In this document: piece after piece, positions 15,416 to 30,182 of the stretch
Numbering within the stretch: the first letter of the stretch is position 1
Layout of the letters: each line of letters opens with the position of its first letter
Assembly (NCBI GenBank): GCA_963832165.1
Contig: CAWHTE010000011.1
Span: 480,001 to 544,000 of the forward strand
DNA from: an uncultured delta proteobacterium
GTDB lineage: Bacteria > Myxococcota_A > UBA9160 > SMWR01
DNA: 64,000 nucleotides
Direction of reading: 5' to 3'
Made by a program: the position numbers and the translations under genes
The notes under the pieces: generated by a model
The model's input: only the letters and a program-made list of their open reading frames with translations
What the model was told of the DNA's origin: nothing
Database searches by the model: none

Positions 15416-15991
15416 TTAGTCGTCCGCGACCACGCGCCGGAGCGGATCGCCGTGCGGCGGCGGCGCCGGTGCCTCGCGCTCGCCTTCGAGCTTCTCGAGC
15501 GCGGCCGCGACGCGTTCGAGATTCTCGCTGAGCGCTTCGATGTCGCTGCGGCGCGGCAGGTCGAGTGCCTTGAACACGCGCTCGACGGCGCCGTGCACCA
15601 TCTCGTCCCACTCCGCGCGCGCGCTGTCGCGCCACCGCGCCGCCTCTTCCTCGCGGTGGCGGATCGCGTCGCGCACGTTCTTCTGGAGCTCGCCGATGTT
15701 CTCCTGCGCGTCGCCGACGCCGCGCTTGAGCGCGCCGTAGAGCACGTCGCCGCCCTTCTGGATCAGATCGGAGAGCAGCCCGCGCGGCACCGCGCGCTGC
15801 GCGCGCTCGTTGTCGACGAGGATCTGCGAGAGCGCGACGTTGGTGATGTCCTCGCCGGTCTCGTTGTCGACCACGCGGACTTCCGCGCCCTGCTCGATCA
15901 GCTCGGCGATGCCCTTGAGCGTGATGTAGCGGCTGGTCTCGGTGTTGTAGAGCTTGCGGTTCGCGTAGCGTTTGATCAGGACGGTGGCCAT
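15416..15991 (-). CDS. PhaR-like polyhydroxyalkanoate regulator DNA-binding domain protein with phasin-like C-terminus
   Basis: IKRYANRKLYNTETSRYITL...VVDNETGEDIT; C-terminal LDLPRRSDIEALSENLERV. Confidence 0.85.
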   Translation of the reverse strand: MATVLIKRYANRKLYNTETSRYITLKGIAELIEQGAEVRVVDNETGEDITNVALSQILVDNERAQRAVPRGLLSDLIQKGGDVLYGALKRGVGDAQENIGELQKNVRDAIRHREEEAARWRDSARAEWDEMVHGAVERVFKALDLPRRSDIEALSENLERVAAALEKLEGEREAPAPPPHGDPLRRVVADD

Positions 15992-16024
15992 CGCCGGGAC
16001 CCTAGCGCTCCATGGCGCAGCGCG

Positions 16025-16495
16025 TCATCCCTGCACGGCCACGCGCTGGACCCGGCGCGGCCCGGGTGCGCGCTGGAGCGGCCCCGCATCCGCGGGGCGC
16101 GGGTCGACGCGCTCGCGCGGTGCGCGCACACCGAGCTCCCAGAGCACCTCGCGCAGGCCCAGGAAGGCGCGCAATACCGGGCGCGCGTCGTCGTCGCTCT
16201 TCGCGCGCTGCTCCCACCGCTCGATCTCCAGCTCGAGCGCGTGCGCGATCTCGGACGCGAGCCGGTCGGAGAGTCCGCCCTCGGTGGTCCAGCCGCGGCT
16301 CGCGCGACCGACCCAGCGATCGATCGATGCGAACAGCGAATTCTCCGCCGCAGACGCGCCCGACGTCGCGAGCGACGCCGCGTCGAGCAGCGCGCGCAGC
16401 GCCTCGAGCGCTTCGGCCACGGCATTCTTCGCGTGGCGGCGCGCGCGCGCGAGCGCTTCGTCGAGTGCGGCGCGATCGGAACCGTCTTCAGCCAC
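16025..16495 (-). CDS. Hypothetical helical protein
   Basis: GC-typical ORF with GGAGG RBS, overlapping the upstream ArsA-like stop; no recognised motif. Confidence 0.65.
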   Translation of the reverse strand: MAEDGSDRAALDEALARARRHAKNAVAEALEALRALLDAASLATSGASAAENSLFASIDRWVGRASRGWTTEGGLSDRLASEIAHALELEIERWEQRAKSDDDARPVLRAFLGLREVLWELGVRAPRERVDPRPADAGPLQRAPGPRRVQRVAVQG

Positions 16496-17717
16496 GCCCA
16501 CCTCCTCGCTTCGCGCTCACGGGCATCGCCTGCTGTTTCTCATCGCGCGCGGCCGGCGCCTGTGAGAGCGCCGTCGCGACCTTCTGGAGTCCCGTGAGAT
16601 CGTGCACGTCGCCGAGCAGCTCGGGCACCGCGCGGAAGAAGCTGCCGCGCCGCTCCGCGTGCTCGCGCAACGCGTCCAGCGCGGTCGCGTCGCGCCGGAC
16701 GAGCGCAGCGTACCGCGCCGCCGCCTCGATCGCTGCGCGCGCCGCCCGCACCGCGGGAAAATTCGCATCCCCTTGCTCCGCGAGAGCGCGCGCGAGCCGT
16801 GCTGTGTCGGGAGATTCGGGGTCGAGCGCACCCGGAGCCGGTCCGTCGTCGGGCCACGCGCGCACGCGATTCGCGACGATGCCGGCCACGGACACGTTGC
16901 TCGCCTCGAGTCGCGCGAGGAATCGCTGCGCCGATTTCACGGATTCGCTCTCGGGGCTCGCCACGAGCACGAACGCGGACTCCGGCCCGAGCAAGAGCGA
17001 CCTCACCTCCTTCGCGCGCGCCTGGAACCCCTCCGACATGTGCTCGAAGGCCATCAGGAATTCAGAGACGTCCTGGAGGAAGCCGATCCCGCTGATGCGC
17101 TCGATCAGCCCGAGCGCGCGGCGCGTGCCCCACTCGAACCAGCGCGCGCCGAGGCGCCCCGCGACCATCGCGGGATGGATCAGCATCTTCACGAGTCGGC
17201 TGTCGAGGAACTCGAGCAGCCGCTCGGGCGCGTCGAGGAAATCGAGCGCGTGCTGCGCGGGCGGCGTGTCGACCACGAGCGTGTCGTAGGCGTCGGAGCG
17301 CGACAGCTCGTAGACCTTCTCCATCGCCGAGTACTCGACGCTGCCCGCGAGCGCATCGGAGACGTGGCGGTAGATCGGATTGTGCAGCACGCGCTCGCGC
17401 GCGGCTGGGCTCTCGGCGAAGCGCGCCACGAGGTCGTCGAACGTGCTCTTCATGTCGAGCATCAGCGCCGAGAGCGAGCCCTCGGGCGGCACGCCGAGCG
17501 CGGCCAGCGTTTCGCGCGGCAGCGGCTCGGGCTGATTGCCCAGCGTCTCCACGCCGAGCGCGTCGGCGAGCCGGCGCGCCGGGTCGATCGTGATCACGAG
17601 CGCGCGGCGACCCGCGCGCGCCGCCTCGAGCGCGATCGCCGCGGCCACCGTGGTCTTGCCCACGCCGCCGCAGCCGACGCATACCACCACGCGGCGCTCG
17701 AGTGCGGGCAGCGTCAC
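16488..17717 (-). CDS. ArsA/Get3-family ATPase (second of pair)
   Basis: VGCGGVGKTT, TIDPARRLADALG, VVDTPP, LDFLDAP; GTG overlaps the upstream stop. Confidence 0.88.
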   Translation of the reverse strand: MTLPALERRVVVCVGCGGVGKTTVAAAIALEAARAGRRALVITIDPARRLADALGVETLGNQPEPLPRETLAALGVPPEGSLSALMLDMKSTFDDLVARFAESPAARERVLHNPIYRHVSDALAGSVEYSAMEKVYELSRSDAYDTLVVDTPPAQHALDFLDAPERLLEFLDSRLVKMLIHPAMVAGRLGARWFEWGTRRALGLIERISGIGFLQDVSEFLMAFEHMSEGFQARAKEVRSLLLGPESAFVLVASPESESVKSAQRFLARLEASNVSVAGIVANRVRAWPDDGPAPGALDPESPDTARLARALAEQGDANFPAVRAARAAIEAAARYAALVRRDATALDALREHAERRGSFFRAVPELLGDVHDLTGLQKVATALSQAPAARDEKQQAMPVSAKRGGGRG

Positions 17718-18689
17718 GCGGCCGACCCGAGCGCGGCGTAGAGCGGCGCGGCGAGCAGCGCGGCGTCGTCGGGGCCGCGCAGTCCGTCGCGCAGGTAGGG
17801 AAGCGGCACGGTCGGCAGACCCGTCTCGCGCGCGATCTGCGCGACGTAGTGGCGATTCAGCTCCGCGCGCGCGCGGAGTGCGCTGCCGCACGCTGCGAGC
17901 ACGCGCGTGGAGGGCAGCTCGCCGAGCGCGAGGTCGTCCGGGCAGCGCCGCGAGGCGCTGATCGAGGTCGGCGAGATCGTCGGGGTAGGGCGGCTCGTGC
18001 ACCGCGTTCACCACGACGCGCTCGATCGCAACGCCGAGCTCGTTCTTCGCGCGCGCGACGAGCTCGACGGTCTCGCGCGCGGGCAGCTCCTCGGCGATCG
18101 CCACGGGCAGCAGGAGCGTGCGCTTGCGGTCCTCGATCAGTGCTTCCACGCGCTCGGTGTGATGGCGCAGCGGACCCGCGCGCACCGCCGAGACCACGAC
18201 GCGCGGCACGTCGAGGAACGTGAGGCTGTGTCCCGTGGCGGGCGCGTCGACGATGATCAGGTCGAAGCGCGGCCGGGCGCCGTCGCGCATCTGCTCGAGG
18301 TGCCAGACCTTCCCGAGCGTGATCAGCTCGCGCCAGCCCGGCGACGCGAGCAGGAGCTGGCGGAAGCCGCGCTGCCGCAGCACCGGATCGACCAGGCGCC
18401 GCGTGCCGATCTGGAGACCGAGGTACTCGCCGAGCGCCTCGAAAGGCTCGATGTGGGTGATCCAGACGTTCTCGCGCGCGAGGACGGGCTGGTAGCGGAG
18501 CGGGCCGGGTCGCGCCGAGAGGAGCCCCGCGAGCCGCGCGTCGGGGTCCACCGCCGCCACGAGCACCCGCTTCCCCCGGGCGGCGGCGCCGAGCGCCAGC
18601 GCCGCCGCGATCGTCGTCTTCCCCGTCCCCCCCTTGCCGGTGACGATGACCAGCCGGCGGTGGTCGAGCGGGCTGGCGGGGTGGGTCAA
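17714..18689 (-). CDS. ArsA/Get3-family ATPase (first of pair), frameshifted near 17940
   Basis: TGKGGTGKTT, LGKVWH, VDAPATGH, EELPARET; C-terminus (...PTVPLPYL...) lies in another frame ending at 17714; span is 3n+1. Confidence 0.8.
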
Positions 18690-21985: not shown

Positions 21986-22564
21986 CTAACGGGAGAGCAG
22001 CACCTTGCGGACGCGGTAGAGGTTCGACTTCACCGCGTCCACGCTCTTGTCGAGGAGCACGGCCACCTCGGCGATCGGCCGGTGCTCGAGGTGATGGAGT
22101 CGGAAGAGCTGGCGCTGCTCCGGCGTCAGATCGTGCTCCGCGGCGGACTCGAGCTGATCGATCCGCTCGCGCAGCTCGTAGTAATCGAGCGGCGTGGTGT
22201 CCTGGATCGCCGCGTCGGGGACGGTCTCGAGCTCGCCGCTCTCGTCGGTCTGGAGCGGCACCGTCGGGTGCTGCTTCTTCTTGAAGCGCCCCGAGATCGT
22301 GTGGCGCGCCACGCCGAGCACCCACGCCGCGAACGGCGCCTCGGCCCGGAATGACCCGAGCGAGGTGAACACGTTCACGAACACTTCCTGGGTGGTCTCC
22401 TCGACGTCGGCGCGGTTGTGCAGCCGGGTCTCGACGAAGCGATACACGCGGCCCACGTAACGCCCATAGAGCAGGTCGAAGGCGTCTTTCTCGCCGGACC
22501 GGACGCGCAAGACCAGCTGCTCATCGCTCACATGACGCGCGGGGGAACACGTCGGTGCCGACAT
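21986..22564 (-). CDS. ECF sigma-70 factor
   Basis: AFDLLYGRY, DVEETTQEVF, FAAWVLGVARH, region 4 IAEVAVLLDKSVDAVKSNLYRVR; start may be GTG 22531. Confidence 0.92.
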   Translation of the reverse strand: MSAPTCSPARHVSDEQLVLRVRSGEKDAFDLLYGRYVGRVYRFVETRLHNRADVEETTQEVFVNVFTSLGSFRAEAPFAAWVLGVARHTISGRFKKKQHPTVPLQTDESGELETVPDAAIQDTTPLDYYELRERIDQLESAAEHDLTPEQRQLFRLHHLEHRPIAEVAVLLDKSVDAVKSNLYRVRKVLLSR

Positions 22565-22726
22565 CCCGGACCTCCCAGTGGGCCCCGGGGCTTTCGGCCG
22601 CCTTCCCCCCGGTAGGCGGTCACTCCGGTGCCTGAGAGGGTAGTGGGATCGGCAACTACAATGGTGTTGAAAATTCTTTGGGCGAGCGGAATTCCCCGGA
22701 GGAAACCCGGGGTTGGAGCCGCGGGC

Positions 22727-23293
22727 TCAGAACCGCTCGCGCTCCTCGAACTCGGCGCGCTCCTCGGGAGTGAGATCGAGGTCGGCTGCCGACAGACCCG
22801 AGCGGAAGCCCGCCGCACCCGCGCCGTCGGCCGGATCGGCGCCATCGCCGATCGCCTCGATCAAGGGCGCGACTCCGCTGCCGTTTTCGACGAAGCGCAG
22901 CGCGGCGAGCCGGAGCCCGGGCGCGCCGGCGGCGCGCGCGGCGGCGATCGCGGCGGGCCGGAACTGGGAAGCGAGCAGCACGACCATCACCTCCGCGCCG
23001 GGCCGTAGGCCCGAATCGGGTGCGAGCTGTGCCCAATCGGCCACGCGTGCCGCCACCCAAGCGCGCTGCGCGAGGCCCTCGGCGACGAGCTCGAGGTCGC
23101 CGCCGGGACGGCCGACGAGCGCGATCACGCAGCGCCCCTCGCCGTCGCGGCCCACCCAGTCGATCCGCGTGTCGGCGCCGAGCACGTTCTCTGCGAGCGG
23201 ACGCCAGCCCGGCACGAGCGCGCCGAGCGCATCGCGCAGCGCGCGTCGCCGCTCGTCGGGCGGCGGCGTTCCCGCGATGCGTACCTCAGCCAA
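22727..23293 (-). CDS. Hypothetical protein with weak PD-(D/E)XK/NucS C-terminal-like pattern
   Basis: TRIDWVGRDGEGRCVIAL resembles the ID-x-x-x-x-D-x-x-G pattern but lacks ExK; coupled to the upstream gene. Confidence 0.6.
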   Translation of the reverse strand: MAEVRIAGTPPPDERRRALRDALGALVPGWRPLAENVLGADTRIDWVGRDGEGRCVIALVGRPGGDLELVAEGLAQRAWVAARVADWAQLAPDSGLRPGAEVMVVLLASQFRPAAIAAARAAGAPGLRLAALRFVENGSGVAPLIEAIGDGADPADGAGAAGFRSGLSAADLDLTPEERAEFEERERF

Positions 23294-24071
23294 GGGTCAG
23301 CTTCTGGGCGTCGCTCCAGAGCATCTGCGCGACGTCGCCGAGCGCGCGCGCGGCTCTCGACTGGGGATGTTCGATCCCGATCGGACGGCGCGCCGCGATC
23401 GCGCGATACACGTGCAGGTCGTCGGCGAGCAGCCCGTAGCTCTGCGGCGCGCGGCCCAGGTGGCGCGACGCCACGCGTGCCACGTGCGCGTACGCGCGCT
23501 CGGCCTCGCGCAGCCGGCGCACGCCGTGGATCACGAGGCCGACCAGCGGGTCCGAGCTGCGCCGATAGGCGAGCTTCGCGAGCGCATACGCCTCGCGCAG
23601 GTCGTTCAGCTCGGGTGTGCCGAACAGCAGCATCCAGCGCAGGAGCGGGCGCACCGCCGCGCCGCGCACGAGCCACTCGGGCGGCACGCACACGACCACG
23701 GCGCCGCCCTCGGCGGCGTCCGCGGCTCCCGCGATCGCGGCGTCGAGCGCCGCGTGACCCAGCGCCACGAGGTCGCCCGCTTCGGGATACGACACCTGGG
23801 CGCCGAGCGGACCGCGTCCGGGCTCGGGCCACAGCGCCGCGGCTCCGGGATCGCGCGGCGCAATCATCACCGCGCGCGCGCCGAGCCGCGCGAGCTCGAC
23901 GGTGAGATTCCACGCGAACGCAGCGCGCACCACGTCGCGGCTCGCCACGGGCAGCGTGAGGATCGGCAGCGCGATGGGCATCGGGCCCGTCTCGCGCGGG
24001 CGATCGAAGCGCTCGGAGCGCTCCGCGACTGGAAGGAAATAGTGCAGGACGTCGTCGAGATCGCGCGGCAA
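23286..24071 (-). CDS. Degenerate MinD/FlhG-like protein lacking Walker A
   Basis: AWNLTVELARLGARAVMI, LREAYALAK, DLHVYRAIAARRPI...PQSRAARALGDVA follow the MinD/FlhG layout; no KGGxGKT. Confidence 0.6.
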   Translation of the reverse strand: MPRDLDDVLHYFLPVAERSERFDRPRETGPMPIALPILTLPVASRDVVRAAFAWNLTVELARLGARAVMIAPRDPGAAALWPEPGRGPLGAQVSYPEAGDLVALGHAALDAAIAGAADAAEGGAVVVCVPPEWLVRGAAVRPLLRWMLLFGTPELNDLREAYALAKLAYRRSSDPLVGLVIHGVRRLREAERAYAHVARVASRHLGRAPQSYGLLADDLHVYRAIAARRPIGIEHPQSRAARALGDVAQMLWSDAQKLTLG

Positions 24072-24089
24072 GTGGAGCTCTTCAGCGCA

Positions 24090-25166
24090 TCAGCGCACTA
24101 CGAGAACGGAATTACGGCCGCCGACCTGACTCGCGACGCCTTCCGGATTATCCGGGTCCTCGCGCCATTCACCGTCGACAACATAGCGATATTGATAACG
24201 ACCCGGAGCGAGGTGAAGGATCTTGGTCCAGATCCGCGTCTCGCCTTCGGCCTCGATCAGCGATCGCACGCCCTTGTCGGGCACCCAGCCGTTGAAGTCC
24301 CCGGCGATCCGGACGTCGCTCGCGCGCTCGTCGCGGAATCGCACGACCACCTCGCGCGGCGGGGAGAGATCGGGGGCGATCACGTCGCGCACCGCGTCGG
24401 GTGCGCTCGCGGCCACCTCGATCGCGAGCGCCGCGTAGTCGTGGGCACCGTTCGCGCTGCGCGCCACGGCGTTGATCGGCTTCCCGCGACTCGCCGCTTC
24501 GCGCAGCTTCACGTTCTGGCGGATCACGGTGTCGAAGCACATGTCCTTGAACATCTCGCGGATCTCGCCGAGTGTCTGGCGCGCGTAGCGCGTGCGTCCG
24601 TCGTAGAGCGTGGGCAGGATCCGCACGGTGAGCTCCTGGCCGATCCGCTCCGTGAGCAGCGCGATCGTCTCGAGCAGCTTCTGCACGCCGTGGATCGCGA
24701 AGAAGCTGGTCTCGAGCGGGACGATCACCTCGCGCGCTGCCCGCAGCGCGTTGAACGTGAGCAGCCCGACGTTGGGCGCGCAGTCGATCAGCGCGAAGTC
24801 GTAGCGGTCGCCGAGCGTCGCGAGCGCCTGCGTGAGGCGCGCGGTGCGGTTCTCGACCGGCTCGGCCGCGAGCTTCTGCTCGAGCGCCGAGAGCACGATG
24901 CCCGACGGCGCCACGTCGAGCCGCTCGCCGACCGACACGCACACGCGCGCGAGCCGGCTCGGGCCGTCGGGATCTGCGAACACCTCGTAGAGGTTCTCGT
25001 CGAGGCGGTCGGGGTCGGCGCCGAGCGCGAGCGTGGCGTGTGCCTGGGGATCGAGGTCGACCACGAGCACGCGATGGCCATCCGCGGCGAGTGCACCGGC
25101 GAGATTGACCGTGGTGGTGGTCTTCCCGCAGCCTCCCTTCTGATTCACGATCGCGATCACGCGCAT
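24090..25166 (-). CDS. ParA/Soj-family ATPase fused to a C-terminal CBM48/AMPK-beta-like glycogen-binding domain
   Basis: NQKGGCGKTT, DLDPQ, IDCAP, IRQNVKLREA; C-terminal VRIAGDFNGW...LAPGRYQYRYVVDGEWREDPDNP...NSVL. Confidence 0.9.
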   Translation of the reverse strand: MRVIAIVNQKGGCGKTTTTVNLAGALAADGHRVLVVDLDPQAHATLALGADPDRLDENLYEVFADPDGPSRLARVCVSVGERLDVAPSGIVLSALEQKLAAEPVENRTARLTQALATLGDRYDFALIDCAPNVGLLTFNALRAAREVIVPLETSFFAIHGVQKLLETIALLTERIGQELTVRILPTLYDGRTRYARQTLGEIREMFKDMCFDTVIRQNVKLREAASRGKPINAVARSANGAHDYAALAIEVAASAPDAVRDVIAPDLSPPREVVVRFRDERASDVRIAGDFNGWVPDKGVRSLIEAEGETRIWTKILHLAPGRYQYRYVVDGEWREDPDNPEGVASQVGGRNSVLVVR

Positions 25167-25265
25167 CCGCCGCTCTCCCCCTTGGTTTCCGCGCTCGGTG
25201 CTCGCGAGGCGGCCGCGCTGGATGCGGGCCGGCCCGGAGTCGGGCTACGGAGTGCCGGCGAGGCG

Positions 25266-25286
25266 GTCCGGAGTCGGACTCCGGAC
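25266..25286. promoter_or_regulatory. Perfect 21-bp palindrome (operator or hairpin)
   Basis: gtccggagtc-g-gactccggac between the MerR and ParA genes. Confidence 0.55.
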
Positions 25287-25299
25287 GGGGGCAGTCGTT

Positions 25300-25767
25300 T
25301 CAGGTCAGCCGGTCGTTGGTCCCGGCCGCGGCCGCGGGTGTGCGCGGGCTGCCATCGACGACGCGCTCGGCCCGGAATGCGTCGACCTCGCGCTGTAGCT
25401 GCGCGATCTCGAACACCCATTCCTGACCGGACACGGCGTCGAAGGCGGTGCCGTCCTTGAAGGCCAGCACCACGTCGCCCGTCGCCACCAGCACGACCTC
25501 GGCCAGCGGACGCTCGACCGCGGGCAGGATCTCTCTCAGTGCACGGATCGACTTCCGAATCCGTTGGACCGAGACGCCGGCATCAATCAGTCTTTTCGCA
25601 GTCTTGAGGGCCACCAAATCCTCGAACGCATAACGCGCGTGGCCCCCGGGAGTCCGAGCACCGGGCGGGACCAGATCGGTCTCGTCCCAATATTGGAGCT
25701 GGCGGCGCGAGATCCCGATGATCTTCGCGACGTCACCCACGCGATACAGATCGCGGGTAGCTCTCAT
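25300..25767 (-). CDS. MerR-family HTH regulator
   Basis: YRVGDVAKIIGISRRQLQYWD...GGHARYAFEDL...LIDAGVSVQRIR. Confidence 0.9.
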   Translation of the reverse strand: MRATRDLYRVGDVAKIIGISRRQLQYWDETDLVPPGARTPGGHARYAFEDLVALKTAKRLIDAGVSVQRIRKSIRALREILPAVERPLAEVVLVATGDVVLAFKDGTAFDAVSGQEWVFEIAQLQREVDAFRAERVVDGSPRTPAAAAGTNDRLT

Positions 25768-25955
25768 GTCCGTGGCAGACCCCCCAGTCCACTGGACATT
25801 AGATGGAAAAAAACGCAGGGACGGACCGAAAGTAAGCCGGACCGGGTGCTCGAGTCAACCCAATAAGGGAGTCGAATTGTCTGGATCGGGGGTCGGCCCC
25901 CGTTCCACAGCAAAAGCCCGGCGAAGGACGGGTGAAGGGGATAGGTTTCGGCGAG

Positions 25956-27212
25956 ATGAGCAAGCCCGAACCGATCGCGCCAGCGGGCGCTCCGGAGGAC
26001 GAGCCCGAGCCGGTGGCCGAGCCCGCCCCGGAGGCCGAAGCCGCGCCCGCCGCGGAGGAACGCGACCGCCGGCTCTGGGTCGATGACGGTGGCGTCCGCC
26101 GACCGTTCATGCGCGGGATCATGATCCACTCTCTGATGGCCCGGGGGTTGCCGTTCGAGGAGGCGAACCGCGTCGCGAACACCGTGCGCGACCGGCTGCG
26201 CCCGCGCGGGCTGGTCGACAAGCCCGCGATCCTCGAGGCGCTCCGCGAGCTGCTCGACGCGAGCCTGTTCGAGGCCGAGAGCCGCCTGCCGATCGCCCCG
26301 GAGATCACGGTGAAGGGGGCGCGCCGGCGCGGCCAGCCGTTCTCGAAGGGCGTGCTCTCGCAGTCGCTGCTCGCGGCCGCGATCGACCCGAACGATTCGT
26401 TCGAGGTGGCGCGCGACATCGAGCGCGAGCTGCTCCGGCGCGGGCTCACCGAGATCGACCGGCGCGAGCTGCGCCGGATCACGCACGCCACGATCGAGCG
26501 GCGGCTCGGGCCCCGCTCCGCGCGCCGCTATCTGGTGTGGCGCCACCGCGCGTCCGTTCAACGCCCTGTGATCCTGCTGCTCGGCGGCGCGGCCGGTGTC
26601 GGCAAGACCACGCTCGCGCTCGAGGTCGCGCACCGGCTCGGGATCGGCCGCGTGCTCTCGACCGATTCGATCCGCCAGATCATGCGCCTGATGCTCTCGC
26701 AGGATCTCGTCCCGGCGATCCACGGATCCTCGTACAACGCCTACACCCACTTTCCGCCCGGCGCGCTCGGCGACGATCCGCTGCTCGAGGGCTTCCGCGC
26801 CCAGGCGGCGACCGTCGCGGTGGGCGTGCGCGCGTCGATCGAGCGCGCGATCGACGAGAACGCGAGCACGGTGATCGACGGCGTCGCGCTGTTCCCGGGC
26901 GCGTTCGACCTCGCGCTCTACAGCGAACGCGCCGATGTGATCTTCCTCGTGGTCGCGGCGCTCGACCGCGACTCGTGGGCCGCGCGCTTCTCCTCGCGCG
27001 AAGCGGGCGAGAGCCAGCGCCCCGCGCACGAGTATCTCGCCAACCTCGACAACATCCTGCGCATCCAGGATCAATTCCTCGAGGCCGCGGAGCGCCACGG
27101 CATCCCGATCGTCGTGAACGACCGCCTCGACCGCGCCGTGCTGCTCGTGATCCGACACCTGACCGAGTCGCTCGGCAAGCGGCCCGACTTCGACGCGCGC
27201 GCGCTGCTGTAA
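25956..27212 (+). CDS. 2-phosphoglycerate kinase-like P-loop protein with two ATP-cone-like domains
   Basis: RPFMRGIMIHSL and QPFSKGVLSQSL; RRYLVW; LLGGAAGVGKTT; STDSIRQIMR; HGSSY; NILRIQD. Confidence 0.8.
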   Translation: MSKPEPIAPAGAPEDEPEPVAEPAPEAEAAPAAEERDRRLWVDDGGVRRPFMRGIMIHSLMARGLPFEEANRVANTVRDRLRPRGLVDKPAILEALRELLDASLFEAESRLPIAPEITVKGARRRGQPFSKGVLSQSLLAAAIDPNDSFEVARDIERELLRRGLTEIDRRELRRITHATIERRLGPRSARRYLVWRHRASVQRPVILLLGGAAGVGKTTLALEVAHRLGIGRVLSTDSIRQIMRLMLSQDLVPAIHGSSYNAYTHFPPGALGDDPLLEGFRAQAATVAVGVRASIERAIDENASTVIDGVALFPGAFDLALYSERADVIFLVVAALDRDSWAARFSSREAGESQRPAHEYLANLDNILRIQDQFLEAAERHGIPIVVNDRLDRAVLLVIRHLTESLGKRPDFDARALL

Positions 27213-27272
27213 TCCTCCGCGGCTGCACTCGCCGGCTGTATAGTGGGACTACCTCGTGCGCAGGAGTTCCCG

Positions 27273-28682
27273 ATGCCCACTCCGCCGGATCCGACCACGC
27301 TGGGAGCGCTCCGGGCTTCGGGCTATCGCGCTCGCACGGTGCGCGAGGAGCTGCGCGTGAACCTGCTCGCGAAGATGGCGAGCGGCGCGCCCGTGTTCAC
27401 GGGCGTGATCGGCTACGAGGAGACGGTGGTGCCTGCGGTCGAGAACGCGCTCTTGTGCGGTCACGACCTGATCTTCCTCGGCGAGCGCGGTCAGGCGAAG
27501 ACGCGCATGATCCGCCAGCTGACCGGACTGCTCGACGAATGGGTGCCCGAGGTCGCGGGCAGCGAGATTCACGACGACCCGACCGCGCCCGTGTCGGCGT
27601 ACGCGCGCGCGCTCGTCGCCGAGCGCGGCGACGCGACGCCGGTCACGTGGGTGCACCGCGACGACCGCTACGTCGAGAAGCTCGCGACGCCCGACGTGTC
27701 GGTCGCCGATCTGATCGGCGACGTCGACCCGATCAAGGTCGCGCAGGGCCGTTCGCTCTCCGACGAGCTGACGATGCACTTCGGACTCGTGCCGCGCACG
27801 CACCGCGGGATCTTCTGCATCAACGAGCTGCCCGACCTCACCGAGAAGGTGCAGGTCGGCCTGTTCAACGTCATGGAAGAGCGCGACGTGCAGGTGAAGG
27901 GCTACCGGATCCGCCTGTCGATCGACGTGCTCGTCGTTGCGAGCGCCAACCCCGAGGACTACACGAGCCGCGGTCGCATCATCACGCCGCTCAAGGACCG
28001 CTATGCGGCCCAGGTGCGCACGCACTACCCGCGCACGCCCGAGCTCGAGCTCGAGATCGTGCGCCAGGAGGCCGAGCCGCCGCGCGCCGACGGTGTCGTG
28101 GTGGTGGTGCCGCGCTTCATGGAGGACGTGATCGCGGAGCTCACGTTCCAGGCGCGCTCGAGCCCGGACGTGAACCAGGCGTCGGGCGTGTCGGTGCGAC
28201 TCTCGATCGCGAACTACGAGACGCTCGCGGCCAACGCGCTGCGCCGCGCGCTGCGACTCCGCGAGTCGGCCGCGGTGCCGCGCATCTCGGATCTCGACGC
28301 GCTCGACACCAGCACGCTCGGCAAGATCGAGCTCGAGTACGCGGGCGGCGAGCGCAGCGAGGGCGACGTGGTGCGCGAGCTGCGCAAGCGCGCGTGCAAG
28401 CGCGTGTTCGACCGCATCGTGAGCGCGGAGGCGGCCGCCGAGGTGGCGCGCGCGTTCGACGACGGCTGGAAGGTGGAGGTGTCGGCGCAGATGCCGTCGC
28501 GCGAGTACCTCGCGGGCCTCGACCAGATCGCGTCGCTGCGCGAGGCGGCGGCGAAGCTCGCCGGCTCCGAGGAACCTGCCGCGATCGCCTCCGCGATCGA
28601 GTTCCTGCTCGAGGGGCTCCATCTGTCGAACAAGCTCAACAAGACCGAGCGCGAACACGGCGCGCGCTACGCGCGCTCGTGA
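27273..28682 (+). CDS. Mg-chelatase ChlI/MoxR-like AAA+ ATPase
   Basis: LGERGQAKTR, EKLATPD, INELPDL, ANPEDYTSRGRIITPLKDR. Confidence 0.9.
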   Translation: MPTPPDPTTLGALRASGYRARTVREELRVNLLAKMASGAPVFTGVIGYEETVVPAVENALLCGHDLIFLGERGQAKTRMIRQLTGLLDEWVPEVAGSEIHDDPTAPVSAYARALVAERGDATPVTWVHRDDRYVEKLATPDVSVADLIGDVDPIKVAQGRSLSDELTMHFGLVPRTHRGIFCINELPDLTEKVQVGLFNVMEERDVQVKGYRIRLSIDVLVVASANPEDYTSRGRIITPLKDRYAAQVRTHYPRTPELELEIVRQEAEPPRADGVVVVVPRFMEDVIAELTFQARSSPDVNQASGVSVRLSIANYETLAANALRRALRLRESAAVPRISDLDALDTSTLGKIELEYAGGERSEGDVVRELRKRACKRVFDRIVSAEAAAEVARAFDDGWKVEVSAQMPSREYLAGLDQIASLREAAAKLAGSEEPAAIASAIEFLLEGLHLSNKLNKTEREHGARYARS

Positions 28683-30182
28683 AATCGAGCGTCTACAGCC
28701 GCTGGGACGGCAGCCAGGACGAGTTCCGTCTCGACGCCGAGCGCGCGCTCGACGCGCTCTCGAACCTGATGATGGAGGGCCTCGACGCGCGCGAGGCGCT
28801 CGAGTGGATGCGCCAGCACGGCTTCGAGCTCGCGGGCCTCGACATGCGTGTGATGGGGCTCTCGGAGCTGCTCGAGGAGATCCAGGAGCAGATCCGGCGA
28901 GGCGCGCGCCGATCTCGCGCGGCGCTTCGAGGAATTGCTCGACCGCGAGCAGGAGCGCCTGCGCGAGAACCACGGCTTCGAGTCGGAGCGCATGAACGAG
29001 TTCAAGCAGCGCCGGCACGCCGACGCGAAGGGCCTCGCCGAGGCGATCGCGCAGTTCTCCGACTATCGCTTCGAAGACGAGGACGCCGCGCGTGCCTATC
29101 GCGAGCTGCTCGAGATGCTCGAGCGCATGCGCGCGATGGAGCAGCTGGCGCGCGACATCGCCGAAGGGAACCTCCAGGAGATCTCACTCGACCAGCTGCG
29201 CGAGATGCTCGGCGAGGACGCGATGCGGTCGCTGATCTTGATCCGCGACCTCGAGTCGACGCTCGAGCGCGCGGGCTATCTGCGCGGCGGAGATCCGCAG
29301 CTCACGCCGCGCGCGATCCGCCGGATCGGCGCGCACGCGCTCGCCGAGGTGTACGCGGCGCTGCGCCGCGACCGGCCCGGCGCACACGAGACCGACGCGC
29401 GCGGCGCCGCCTTGCCGCGACCCGACGAAGTGAAGCCGTTCGAGTTCGGCGATCCGCTCGACCTCGACGTCGTGCGCACGCTGATCGATGCCGTGAAGCG
29501 CAACGCGCGAGCGGCGCCCGGGCGGCCCATCCCTCTGCCGGTACCGCTCGAGGTCGAGGACTTCGCGCTGCGCGAGCGCGACTACAACACCCAGACCACC
29601 ACCGTGCTCCTGCTCGACATGAGCTGGTCGATGTCGTGGGCCGGCCGCTTCCCGGCCGCGAAGCGCGTGGCGCTCGCACTCGATCACCTCGTGCGCACGC
29701 GCTTTCCGCGAGATCATTTCTTCGTGGTCGGTTTCTCGACGCGAGCGCGAGAGCTCTCGCCGAGCGAGCTGCCCGAAGTCTCGTGGGACATGGGCGACCC
29801 GTTCACCAATCTGCAGGAAGGGCTCATGATCGCGGAGCGGCTGTTCGCGAAGCACCCGTCGGCGAGCCCGCAGGTGCTCGTGGTGACGGACGGGCAGCCC
29901 ACTGCCTACTACGCCGGCAAAGAGCTGCATGTCGAGTGGCCGATGGGCTTTGGCGGCGTGTCGCCGCACGCGGTGGCCGAGACGATGAAGCAGGTGCGGC
30001 GCATCACGCGTCAGGGCGTGACGATCAATACCTTCATGCTCGACGACTCGCCGGAGCTGGTCGGATTCGTGGAGCGCATGACGCAGGTCAACCGCGGACG
30101 CGCGTTCTTCACGAGCCCCGAGGCGCTCGGCTCGTTCCTGATGGTCGATTATCTGCGCGGGAGCCGGAAGCGCCGGCGCTGA
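28679..30182 (+). CDS. VWA-domain partner protein, frameshifted near 28900
   Basis: N-terminal YSRWDGSQ in one frame; MIDAS LLDMSWSM, FTNLQEGL, VTDGQPTA in another; span is 3n+1. Confidence 0.8.

Follow-up and report, generated by a model that had tools for sequence, protein, structure and literature searches.

The locus at positions 21986..25767 of a 64,000-nucleotide stretch of contig CAWHTE010000011.1 (henceforth 'the window', which denotes this whole stretch) raises the question of what a ParA-type ATPase that carries a carbohydrate-binding domain does in its host, an uncultured delta proteobacterium. An earlier note on this DNA, made from the sequence alone, had described five co-directional genes encoding a MerR-family regulator, the ATPase (here gene A), two partner proteins judged to be catalytically dead (genes B and C) and an ECF sigma factor, with no parB, and had proposed that A tethers glycogen or glucan granules to the nucleoid or senses carbon stores. 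A check of the open reading frames in the window bore out this gene content and order, with all five genes on the minus strand (to which the coordinates of all features of the locus given below refer), and a search of the genome found no parB at the locus, the single parB of the genome lying on contig C7 beside another parA. We give an even chance to the reading that the locus encodes a housekeeping ParA-type tether or positioner, a predicted function, with a ligand other than glycogen in this host. The comparisons below refer to the class of this organism, which we take to be UBA9160 (henceforth 'the class'), and to lineages outside it.

Gene A (24090..25166) encodes a protein that matches Pfam AAA_31 over residues 1-180 (E 4e-49) and AMPK1_CBM over residues 275-354 (E 1e-10), the latter being the only CBM of this type found by a search of the genome. 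The ATPase domain (24411..25166) is assigned to the Soj/ParA type by Pfam, by residue alignment and by its nearest solved sequences, which are chromosomal ParA/Soj proteins (PDB 8ray, 1wcv and 6iub). It has the deviant Walker A motif with the signature lysine (Lys10), the Walker A lysine (Lys15), Asp37/Asp39, the Walker B aspartate (Asp128) and the basic residues Arg191 and Lys220, which alignment matches to ParA 8ray, so that both the catalytic and the DNA-binding residues expected of a ParA-type positioner are present. The two basic positions presumably correspond to Soj R189 and R218. Across 42 aligned rows K10, K15, D37, D39, D128 and R191 are kept throughout (42/42), position 220 is K or R in 42/42, and the Walker A threonine has a single exception. 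The C-terminal CBM48 (24090..24353) is of the AMPK-beta type, as judged from Pfam and from alignment with AMPK-beta CBMs, and its Asn352 is aligned with what we take to be AMPK-beta N150. Trp294, Arg327, Trp334 and Gly349 align with AMPK-beta W100, K126, W133 and G147, mutations of which are described as abolishing or weakening glycogen binding (PMC6274970). All 40 class loci that were picked by BLAST and on which this count was made retain the two tryptophans and the arginine; a count of 74/74 was discarded as circular because its rows had been chosen on the first tryptophan. The view of A as an intact ParA ATPase fused to an intact-looking CBM48 therefore holds, since catalytic, DNA-binding and glucan-binding residues are all kept. 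In a Desulfobacterales clade of the same ATPase (L026, L028, L054 and L069) an acidic tail replaces the CBM.

Neither B nor C has a Pfam match, and both were characterised from AlphaFold models. The model of B (23286..24071; predicted local distance difference test (pLDDT) 88.9) has FlhG 4rz2 and FleN 5j1j as its best Foldseek matches, from which B differs in the class by a Walker A motif that the alignment shows to be missing, although some relatives retain a degenerate one. C (22727..23293), the start of which overlaps the stop of B, gave a model (pLDDT 91.7) with best Foldseek matches to 2vld and 5gke, that is, to the C-terminal nuclease domain of NucS/EndoMS, from which it differs by lacking both the (D/E)xK motif and the N-terminal DNA-binding domain. 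The first Asp persists in 133 of 138 rows, with a hydrophobic residue at the (D/E)xK position. Both proteins are thus what the earlier note had taken them for, a MinD/FlhG-like protein without Walker A and a PD-(D/E)XK-like protein without ExK. Elsewhere the genome encodes another NucS-like protein (G000 C1:371099-372016), which has an N-terminal zinc ribbon and a catalytic motif degenerate in a similar way, with no ParA adjoining.

C ends in a conserved tail (22730..22807; FRSGL...LTPEE helix), the FR[ST]GL motif of which occurs in 25 of 32 class C proteins. The acidic tail is present in 9/9 separate C genes behind B, as judged by eye, and in 0/56 complete C proteins that are fused to the partner peptide described below, all of which come without B. 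Because the tail tracks the presence of a separate B, these counts, which come from few independent lineages, suggest that it is a candidate docking site for B, possibly analogous to the short EIDAL motif of FliM, which FlhG is reported to bind (bioRxiv 10.1101/2022.04.21.489128) and which the tail resembles by eye. In Phycisphaerae B and C are fused, and both halves match a fused protein of Fontivita pretiosa (WP_428938566.1; E 3e-7 and 1e-5).

A scan of GTDB genomes returned 579 related stretches, the best 80 of which, 21 from the class and 59 from elsewhere (Phycisphaerae, Desulfobacterales, Omnitrophota, Rokubacteria, Eisenbacteria, Auribacterota and lineages without names), were compared. 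Across phyla the gene behind A opens with a peptide of 14 residues, the consensus of which is (L/x)(G/P)RxLx(D/E)(I/V)(S/L)H(L/Y)FL(S/P). A matrix for this peptide was trained on 28 loci outside the class, chosen by a pattern that was written after the sequences had been viewed, and its top match in the whole 64 kb was the start of the window's B (24030..24071; 16.8 bits, the next match reaching 3.7), a predicted ParA-docking and ParA-activating element. The top match was correctly placed in 12 of the 21 class loci that had been held out and, by leave-one-out, in 30 of 59 loci outside the class. A search of metagenome DNA with the peptide pattern alone returned at least 120 loci. Immediately upstream of the peptide, 103 of the 111 that were parsed encode ParA and/or CBM, and in the remaining 8 the upstream DNA is no longer than 301 nt; among 9 unparsed loci 8 show ParA or CBM and the ninth combines DUF4912 with GH57. 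Carriers of the peptide vary: it is found on B (with C next to it), on C alone (in Rokubacteria and two Desulfobacterales-like loci), on a protein of 105 amino acids and on the B-C fusion of Phycisphaerae. In two of the loci with a CBM-less ATPase (L026 and L028) the following gene encodes a peptide-bearing protein of 105-113 residues, the fold of which is unassigned. ParB proteins from the same genomes open with LG[RK]G[LI] in 26 of 30 cases, and partners of ParA/MinD ATPases are described as generally acting via N-terminal peptides (PMC10241942). A literature search for the LGRGL peptide returned nothing relevant by title.

Since the residues of A are invariant and the peptide is mobile between partners encoded right behind A, we infer that B-C is an activator for A and that A runs through a nucleoid cycle. 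ATP-bound dimers of A would coat the nucleoid via their basic face, as the conserved residues suggest, and B and C would act as one partner unit. The arginine-bearing N-terminal peptide of B may dock on the A dimer and elicit hydrolysis and release, like the peptides of ParB, McdB and MinE, with C attached to B by its C-terminal tail and providing a localising surface. A would connect the nucleoid with a ligand of the glucan type, and the place of its release would be set by B-C. The ligand is plausibly glycogen in glycogen-making lineages; in this host and most of the class it would have to be something else, such as a different glucan, a small malto-oligosaccharide or a protein. The notion that the two degenerate proteins serve as activator and adaptor is consistent with their genomic behaviour, namely the shared N-terminal peptide and the B-C fusion.

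Compared with known systems, the locus resembles chromosomal ParABS in the nearest solved sequences of A, in its catalytic and DNA-binding residues and, in many lineages, in the start of the partner peptide, and is unlike it in that A has no adjacent ParB and carries an extra CBM48 and in that the second half of the peptide differs from that of ParB. With McdA-McdB, ParC and related ParA/MinD positioners (PMC10241942) it shares an orphan ParA with what sequence and genomics indicate to be a dedicated partner, the N-terminal charged peptide of which is followed by a variable remainder; it differs in that A itself carries a ligand domain, the partner is a pseudo-FlhG plus a pseudo-nuclease, and no cargo genes adjoin it in the class.

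Several observations weigh against a ParA-type tether. None of 61 class loci has a cargo gene next to the operon, and a ligand domain on the ATPase is unlike the build of known positioning systems. The peptide was not the top match behind A in 29 of the 59 outside loci, some of which are on cut contigs and one of which was outscored by a second copy of the peptide, and the metagenome loci come mostly from one Rokubacteria-like lineage and are therefore not independent. The likeness to ParB is confined to the first five residues, beyond which a matrix test was negative (median -10.4 against -12.8 for the control, with 6/13 wins), and in the window's B peptide only the Arg and Leu of the ParB-like half remain. 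Throughout one Sedimentisphaerales-like branch the ATPase gene lacks a neighbouring partner, and a single query of 5 of these genomes, run with no positive control, did not find a partner at other places either. A predicted complex of two ATPase domains, ATP, Mg and a 32-residue B peptide, for which the score was 0.02 and the controls were not folded, speaks neither for nor against the docking.

We considered which of the five genes belong together. Among the best 80 of the 579 stretches MerR (25300..25767; Pfam MerR_1 E 2e-17), a short protein encoded by what is the first gene of the operon in the class only, is next to A in 15 of the 21 loci from the class and in none of the 59 from outside; for the ECF gene (21986..22564; Pfam sigma-70 regions 2 and 4) the corresponding figures are 15 of 21 and, as a weak opposite-strand match, 1 of 59. 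The set of 40 class loci contains B 40 times, C 32 times, MerR 31 times and ECF 35 times, and because these genes recur the gene order is not due to chance. Hence, conservation of the cluster as first described holds for the order A-B-C and, within the class, for MerR and ECF, and fails for the latter two outside the class, where they are no part of the cross-phylum module. A generic scan for promoters and terminators found nothing. TTGAC precedes MerR in 22 of 31 class loci, in most of them in the same register, and in the window it forms part of a putative sigma-70-like promoter (TTGACT, 18 nt, TACTTT; 25829..25858) that is conserved in the class. Upstream of the ECF gene relatives have the motif GTGACA-T4-TTGACACC-N16-CCACT, matched in 21 of 35 class loci, which contains a direct repeat and may be a promoter through which the ECF gene regulates itself; a promoter-like motif that is a degenerate form of the TTGACACC-N16-CCACT consensus lies at 22642..22680 in the window. 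Since MerR and ECF are limited to the class and ECF has a motif of its own, we take the operon to be MerR-A-B-C and the cross-phylum module to be A with B and/or C, with ECF a syntenic neighbour that is probably transcribed separately.

A is present in 116 of 121 class genomes, in 115 of them as a single copy, and its tree requires 8 family changes compared with a minimum of 7 and with 23.4 for shuffled trees. The orders of Phycisphaerae are likewise recovered as clades, and within the class A is a vertically inherited core gene; at the phylum level the distribution of the family is patchy.

This distribution bears on a different function proposed for the same genes. A preprint by Li, Burroughs and Aravind (22 Oct 2026, bioRxiv 10.64898/2026.10.19.760177) describes a 'CBM-containing' ParA system, branch ConB5, and its section 29 lists ParA fused to AMPK1_CBM and a second variant, in which an inactive ParA and a likewise inactive restriction endonuclease (REase) join it. 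The locus A-B-C is this second variant: ParA with a C-terminal AMPK1_CBM, a fast-evolving inactive ParA-like gene and an inactive REase-fold gene are all present, and the statement in the earlier note that no characterised system with this make-up was known has to yield to a gene set already listed there by computation. Our own literature searches, which paired ParA with CBM48 or with glycogen-granule positioning, returned no relevant paper by title and missed the preprint too. The portions of its main text that we could consult do not contain the partner N-terminal peptide, the B-C fusion, the C tail or the independence from glycogen genes described below. Section 29 proposes carbohydrate-triggered immunity because the CBM diverges fast; the CBM would detect an infection-linked carbohydrate, ParA would multimerise and limit the invader, and the dead nuclease may sense DNA. 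B and C do diverge fast in the class (identity of 0.43 and 0.40, respectively), and in line with this proposal conservation across 18 lineage representatives is somewhat lower for the CBM than for the ATPase (0.39 vs 0.47) and the distribution at the phylum level is patchy. However, rapid divergence of the CBM was not found in the class, where its identity is 0.66 compared with 0.70 for the ATPase and 0.55 for ECF and its binding residues are invariant in 40/40 loci, and in place of a patchy mobile distribution we found a near-universal single-copy gene in one fixed neighbourhood, the tree of which follows families and orders. Furthermore, PADLOC matched none of 8 window proteins and 9 of 120 neighbour proteins (drawn from about 296 neighbour representatives, with no background rate), several of these being generic repeats, and no defence neighbour recurred. 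Overall, the ConB5 variant and the window share the same A, B and C set, both described by computation, and differ in the class by a conserved CBM and core gene status, and we regard immunity as an unlikely role here.

The proposal that the CBM48 binds glycogen granules, which A would spread or segregate over the nucleoid, was assessed from the glycogen genes of the carriers. In this genome (89% complete) no match was found for glgB, GlgE, GH57, phosphorylase, GH13 or GT3, and glgA and glgC gave sub-threshold matches only; the families searched do not include GT4-type glycogen synthases, amylomaltase or other glucan pathways. Among the 121 class genomes glgB was found in 47, phosphorylase in 33, glgA in 31, GlgE in 13 and a GH57 branching enzyme in none, so that 46 of the 116 carriers have at least one of these five families and 70 have none, the latter including assemblies of 1-3 contigs (G038, G055, G011 and G010). 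Some glgB genes (G061 and G067) escape detection by PF00128 at E 1e-10, and its count of 70/121 was not used as a count of glycogen genes. Two of the five class non-carriers have glgB, and GT3 was missing from 10/10 class genomes tested. The CBM is no less conserved where glgB is lacking (identity 0.68 in 20 glgB-negative genomes, one of which has glgA, vs 0.64 in 20 positive genomes); within the class its conservation is independent of glycogen genes. Carriers without glycogen enzymes, which the earlier note had named in advance as speaking against its idea, thus exist, both in this host and in 70 of 116 class carriers.

In other lineages the evidence is mixed. Forty of the 59 outside genomes were tested, and of the 38 that bear a CBM 23 have a glycogen synthase (glgA in 15 and GT3 in 8), whereas 15, in a set of incomplete assemblies, have neither; in neither of the two relatives without a CBM did glgA exceed the cut-off. 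A GH57 or GlgB gene lies next to the module in 4 of 59 outside genome loci and 6 of 80 metagenome loci, compared with 0 of 61 class loci. In two Omnitrophota-like contigs a Lys-rich DUF4912 protein that carries the partner peptide directly precedes a GH57 branching enzyme (L040:9725-11608 and L130:1611-3191), although the peptide occurs in only 1 of 12 DUF4912 loci plus one metagenome locus, and DUF4912 was rejected as a general carrier. A protein with a single membrane helix, encoded behind a GH57 gene and upstream of ParA-CBM in two loci (L043:2963-3562 and L080:3287-3850), represents the first variant of the preprint; it was rejected as a peptide carrier, its matrix score of -15.5 being equal to the null median, and the two records, though titled Planctomycetales, fall outside the Planctomycetota clade in the tree. 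Taken together with the AMPK-type binding residues, the presence of glycogen enzymes in several other lineages, where they are sometimes adjacent, keeps the glycogen idea alive there: granule positioning is plausible in those lineages and as the ancestral role, and glycogen is a fair candidate for the ancestral cargo. For this host glycogen is a poor candidate and granule positioning improbable. That genomes in which no glycogen enzymes were found keep this core single-copy gene, with its sugar-binding site intact, points to another ligand or another role.

One such role is that of a metabolic signalling switch, in which the CBM would sense a soluble glucan and A, with the pseudo-FlhG B, would control a regulator in the style of FlhG/FleN-FleQ/FlrA, possibly MerR or ECF in the class. 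The predicted FlhG/FleN fold of B, the likeness of the C tail to EIDAL and a CBM that is kept without glycogen genes all fit such a switch; MerR and ECF, on the other hand, lie outside the cross-phylum module, no ligand pathway co-occurs, and the DNA-binding residues and the ParB-like peptide suggest a nucleoid ParA cycle instead, which leaves the switch doubtful. A narrower form of the favoured reading, in which a housekeeping ParA machine whose motor holds a carbohydrate arose for glycogen granules and was kept in the class for a different glucan or a glycan-bearing structure, is possible but tentative; the GH57 and DUF4912 links in other lineages are what suggest such an origin in glycogen-granule organisation.

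Other genes lie around the locus. The genes at 15416-18571, 4-7 kb downstream, encode a PhaR-like protein (PHB_acc_N plus a phasin-like part), a short helical protein and an ArsA/Get3-like ATPase pair and form a possible polyhydroxyalkanoate-granule cluster. On the other side, a divergent cluster (25932-30182) contains an ATP-cone 2-phosphoglycerate-kinase-like gene, which adjoins the operon in 39 of 40 class loci, a MoxR/ChlI-like AAA ATPase and a VWA protein. In Auribacterota-like loci a DUF151 bifunctional nuclease gene lies directly upstream of ParA-CBM (L068:5408-5911 and L072:497-1015).

Both existing readings, glycogen positioning and immunity, fit this class poorly, and the family spans several phyla. 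Specific mutations can be derived from the peptide and the tail, and together with the B-C fusion that occurs in nature these offer a minimal system; Fontivita pretiosa is a cultured organism with the fused partner. If the housekeeping ParA-type reading is correct with a carbohydrate held by the motor, the family would be without known precedent among ParA/MinD systems, both in having a polysaccharide as cargo and in dividing its activator between a pseudo-FlhG and a pseudo-nuclease.

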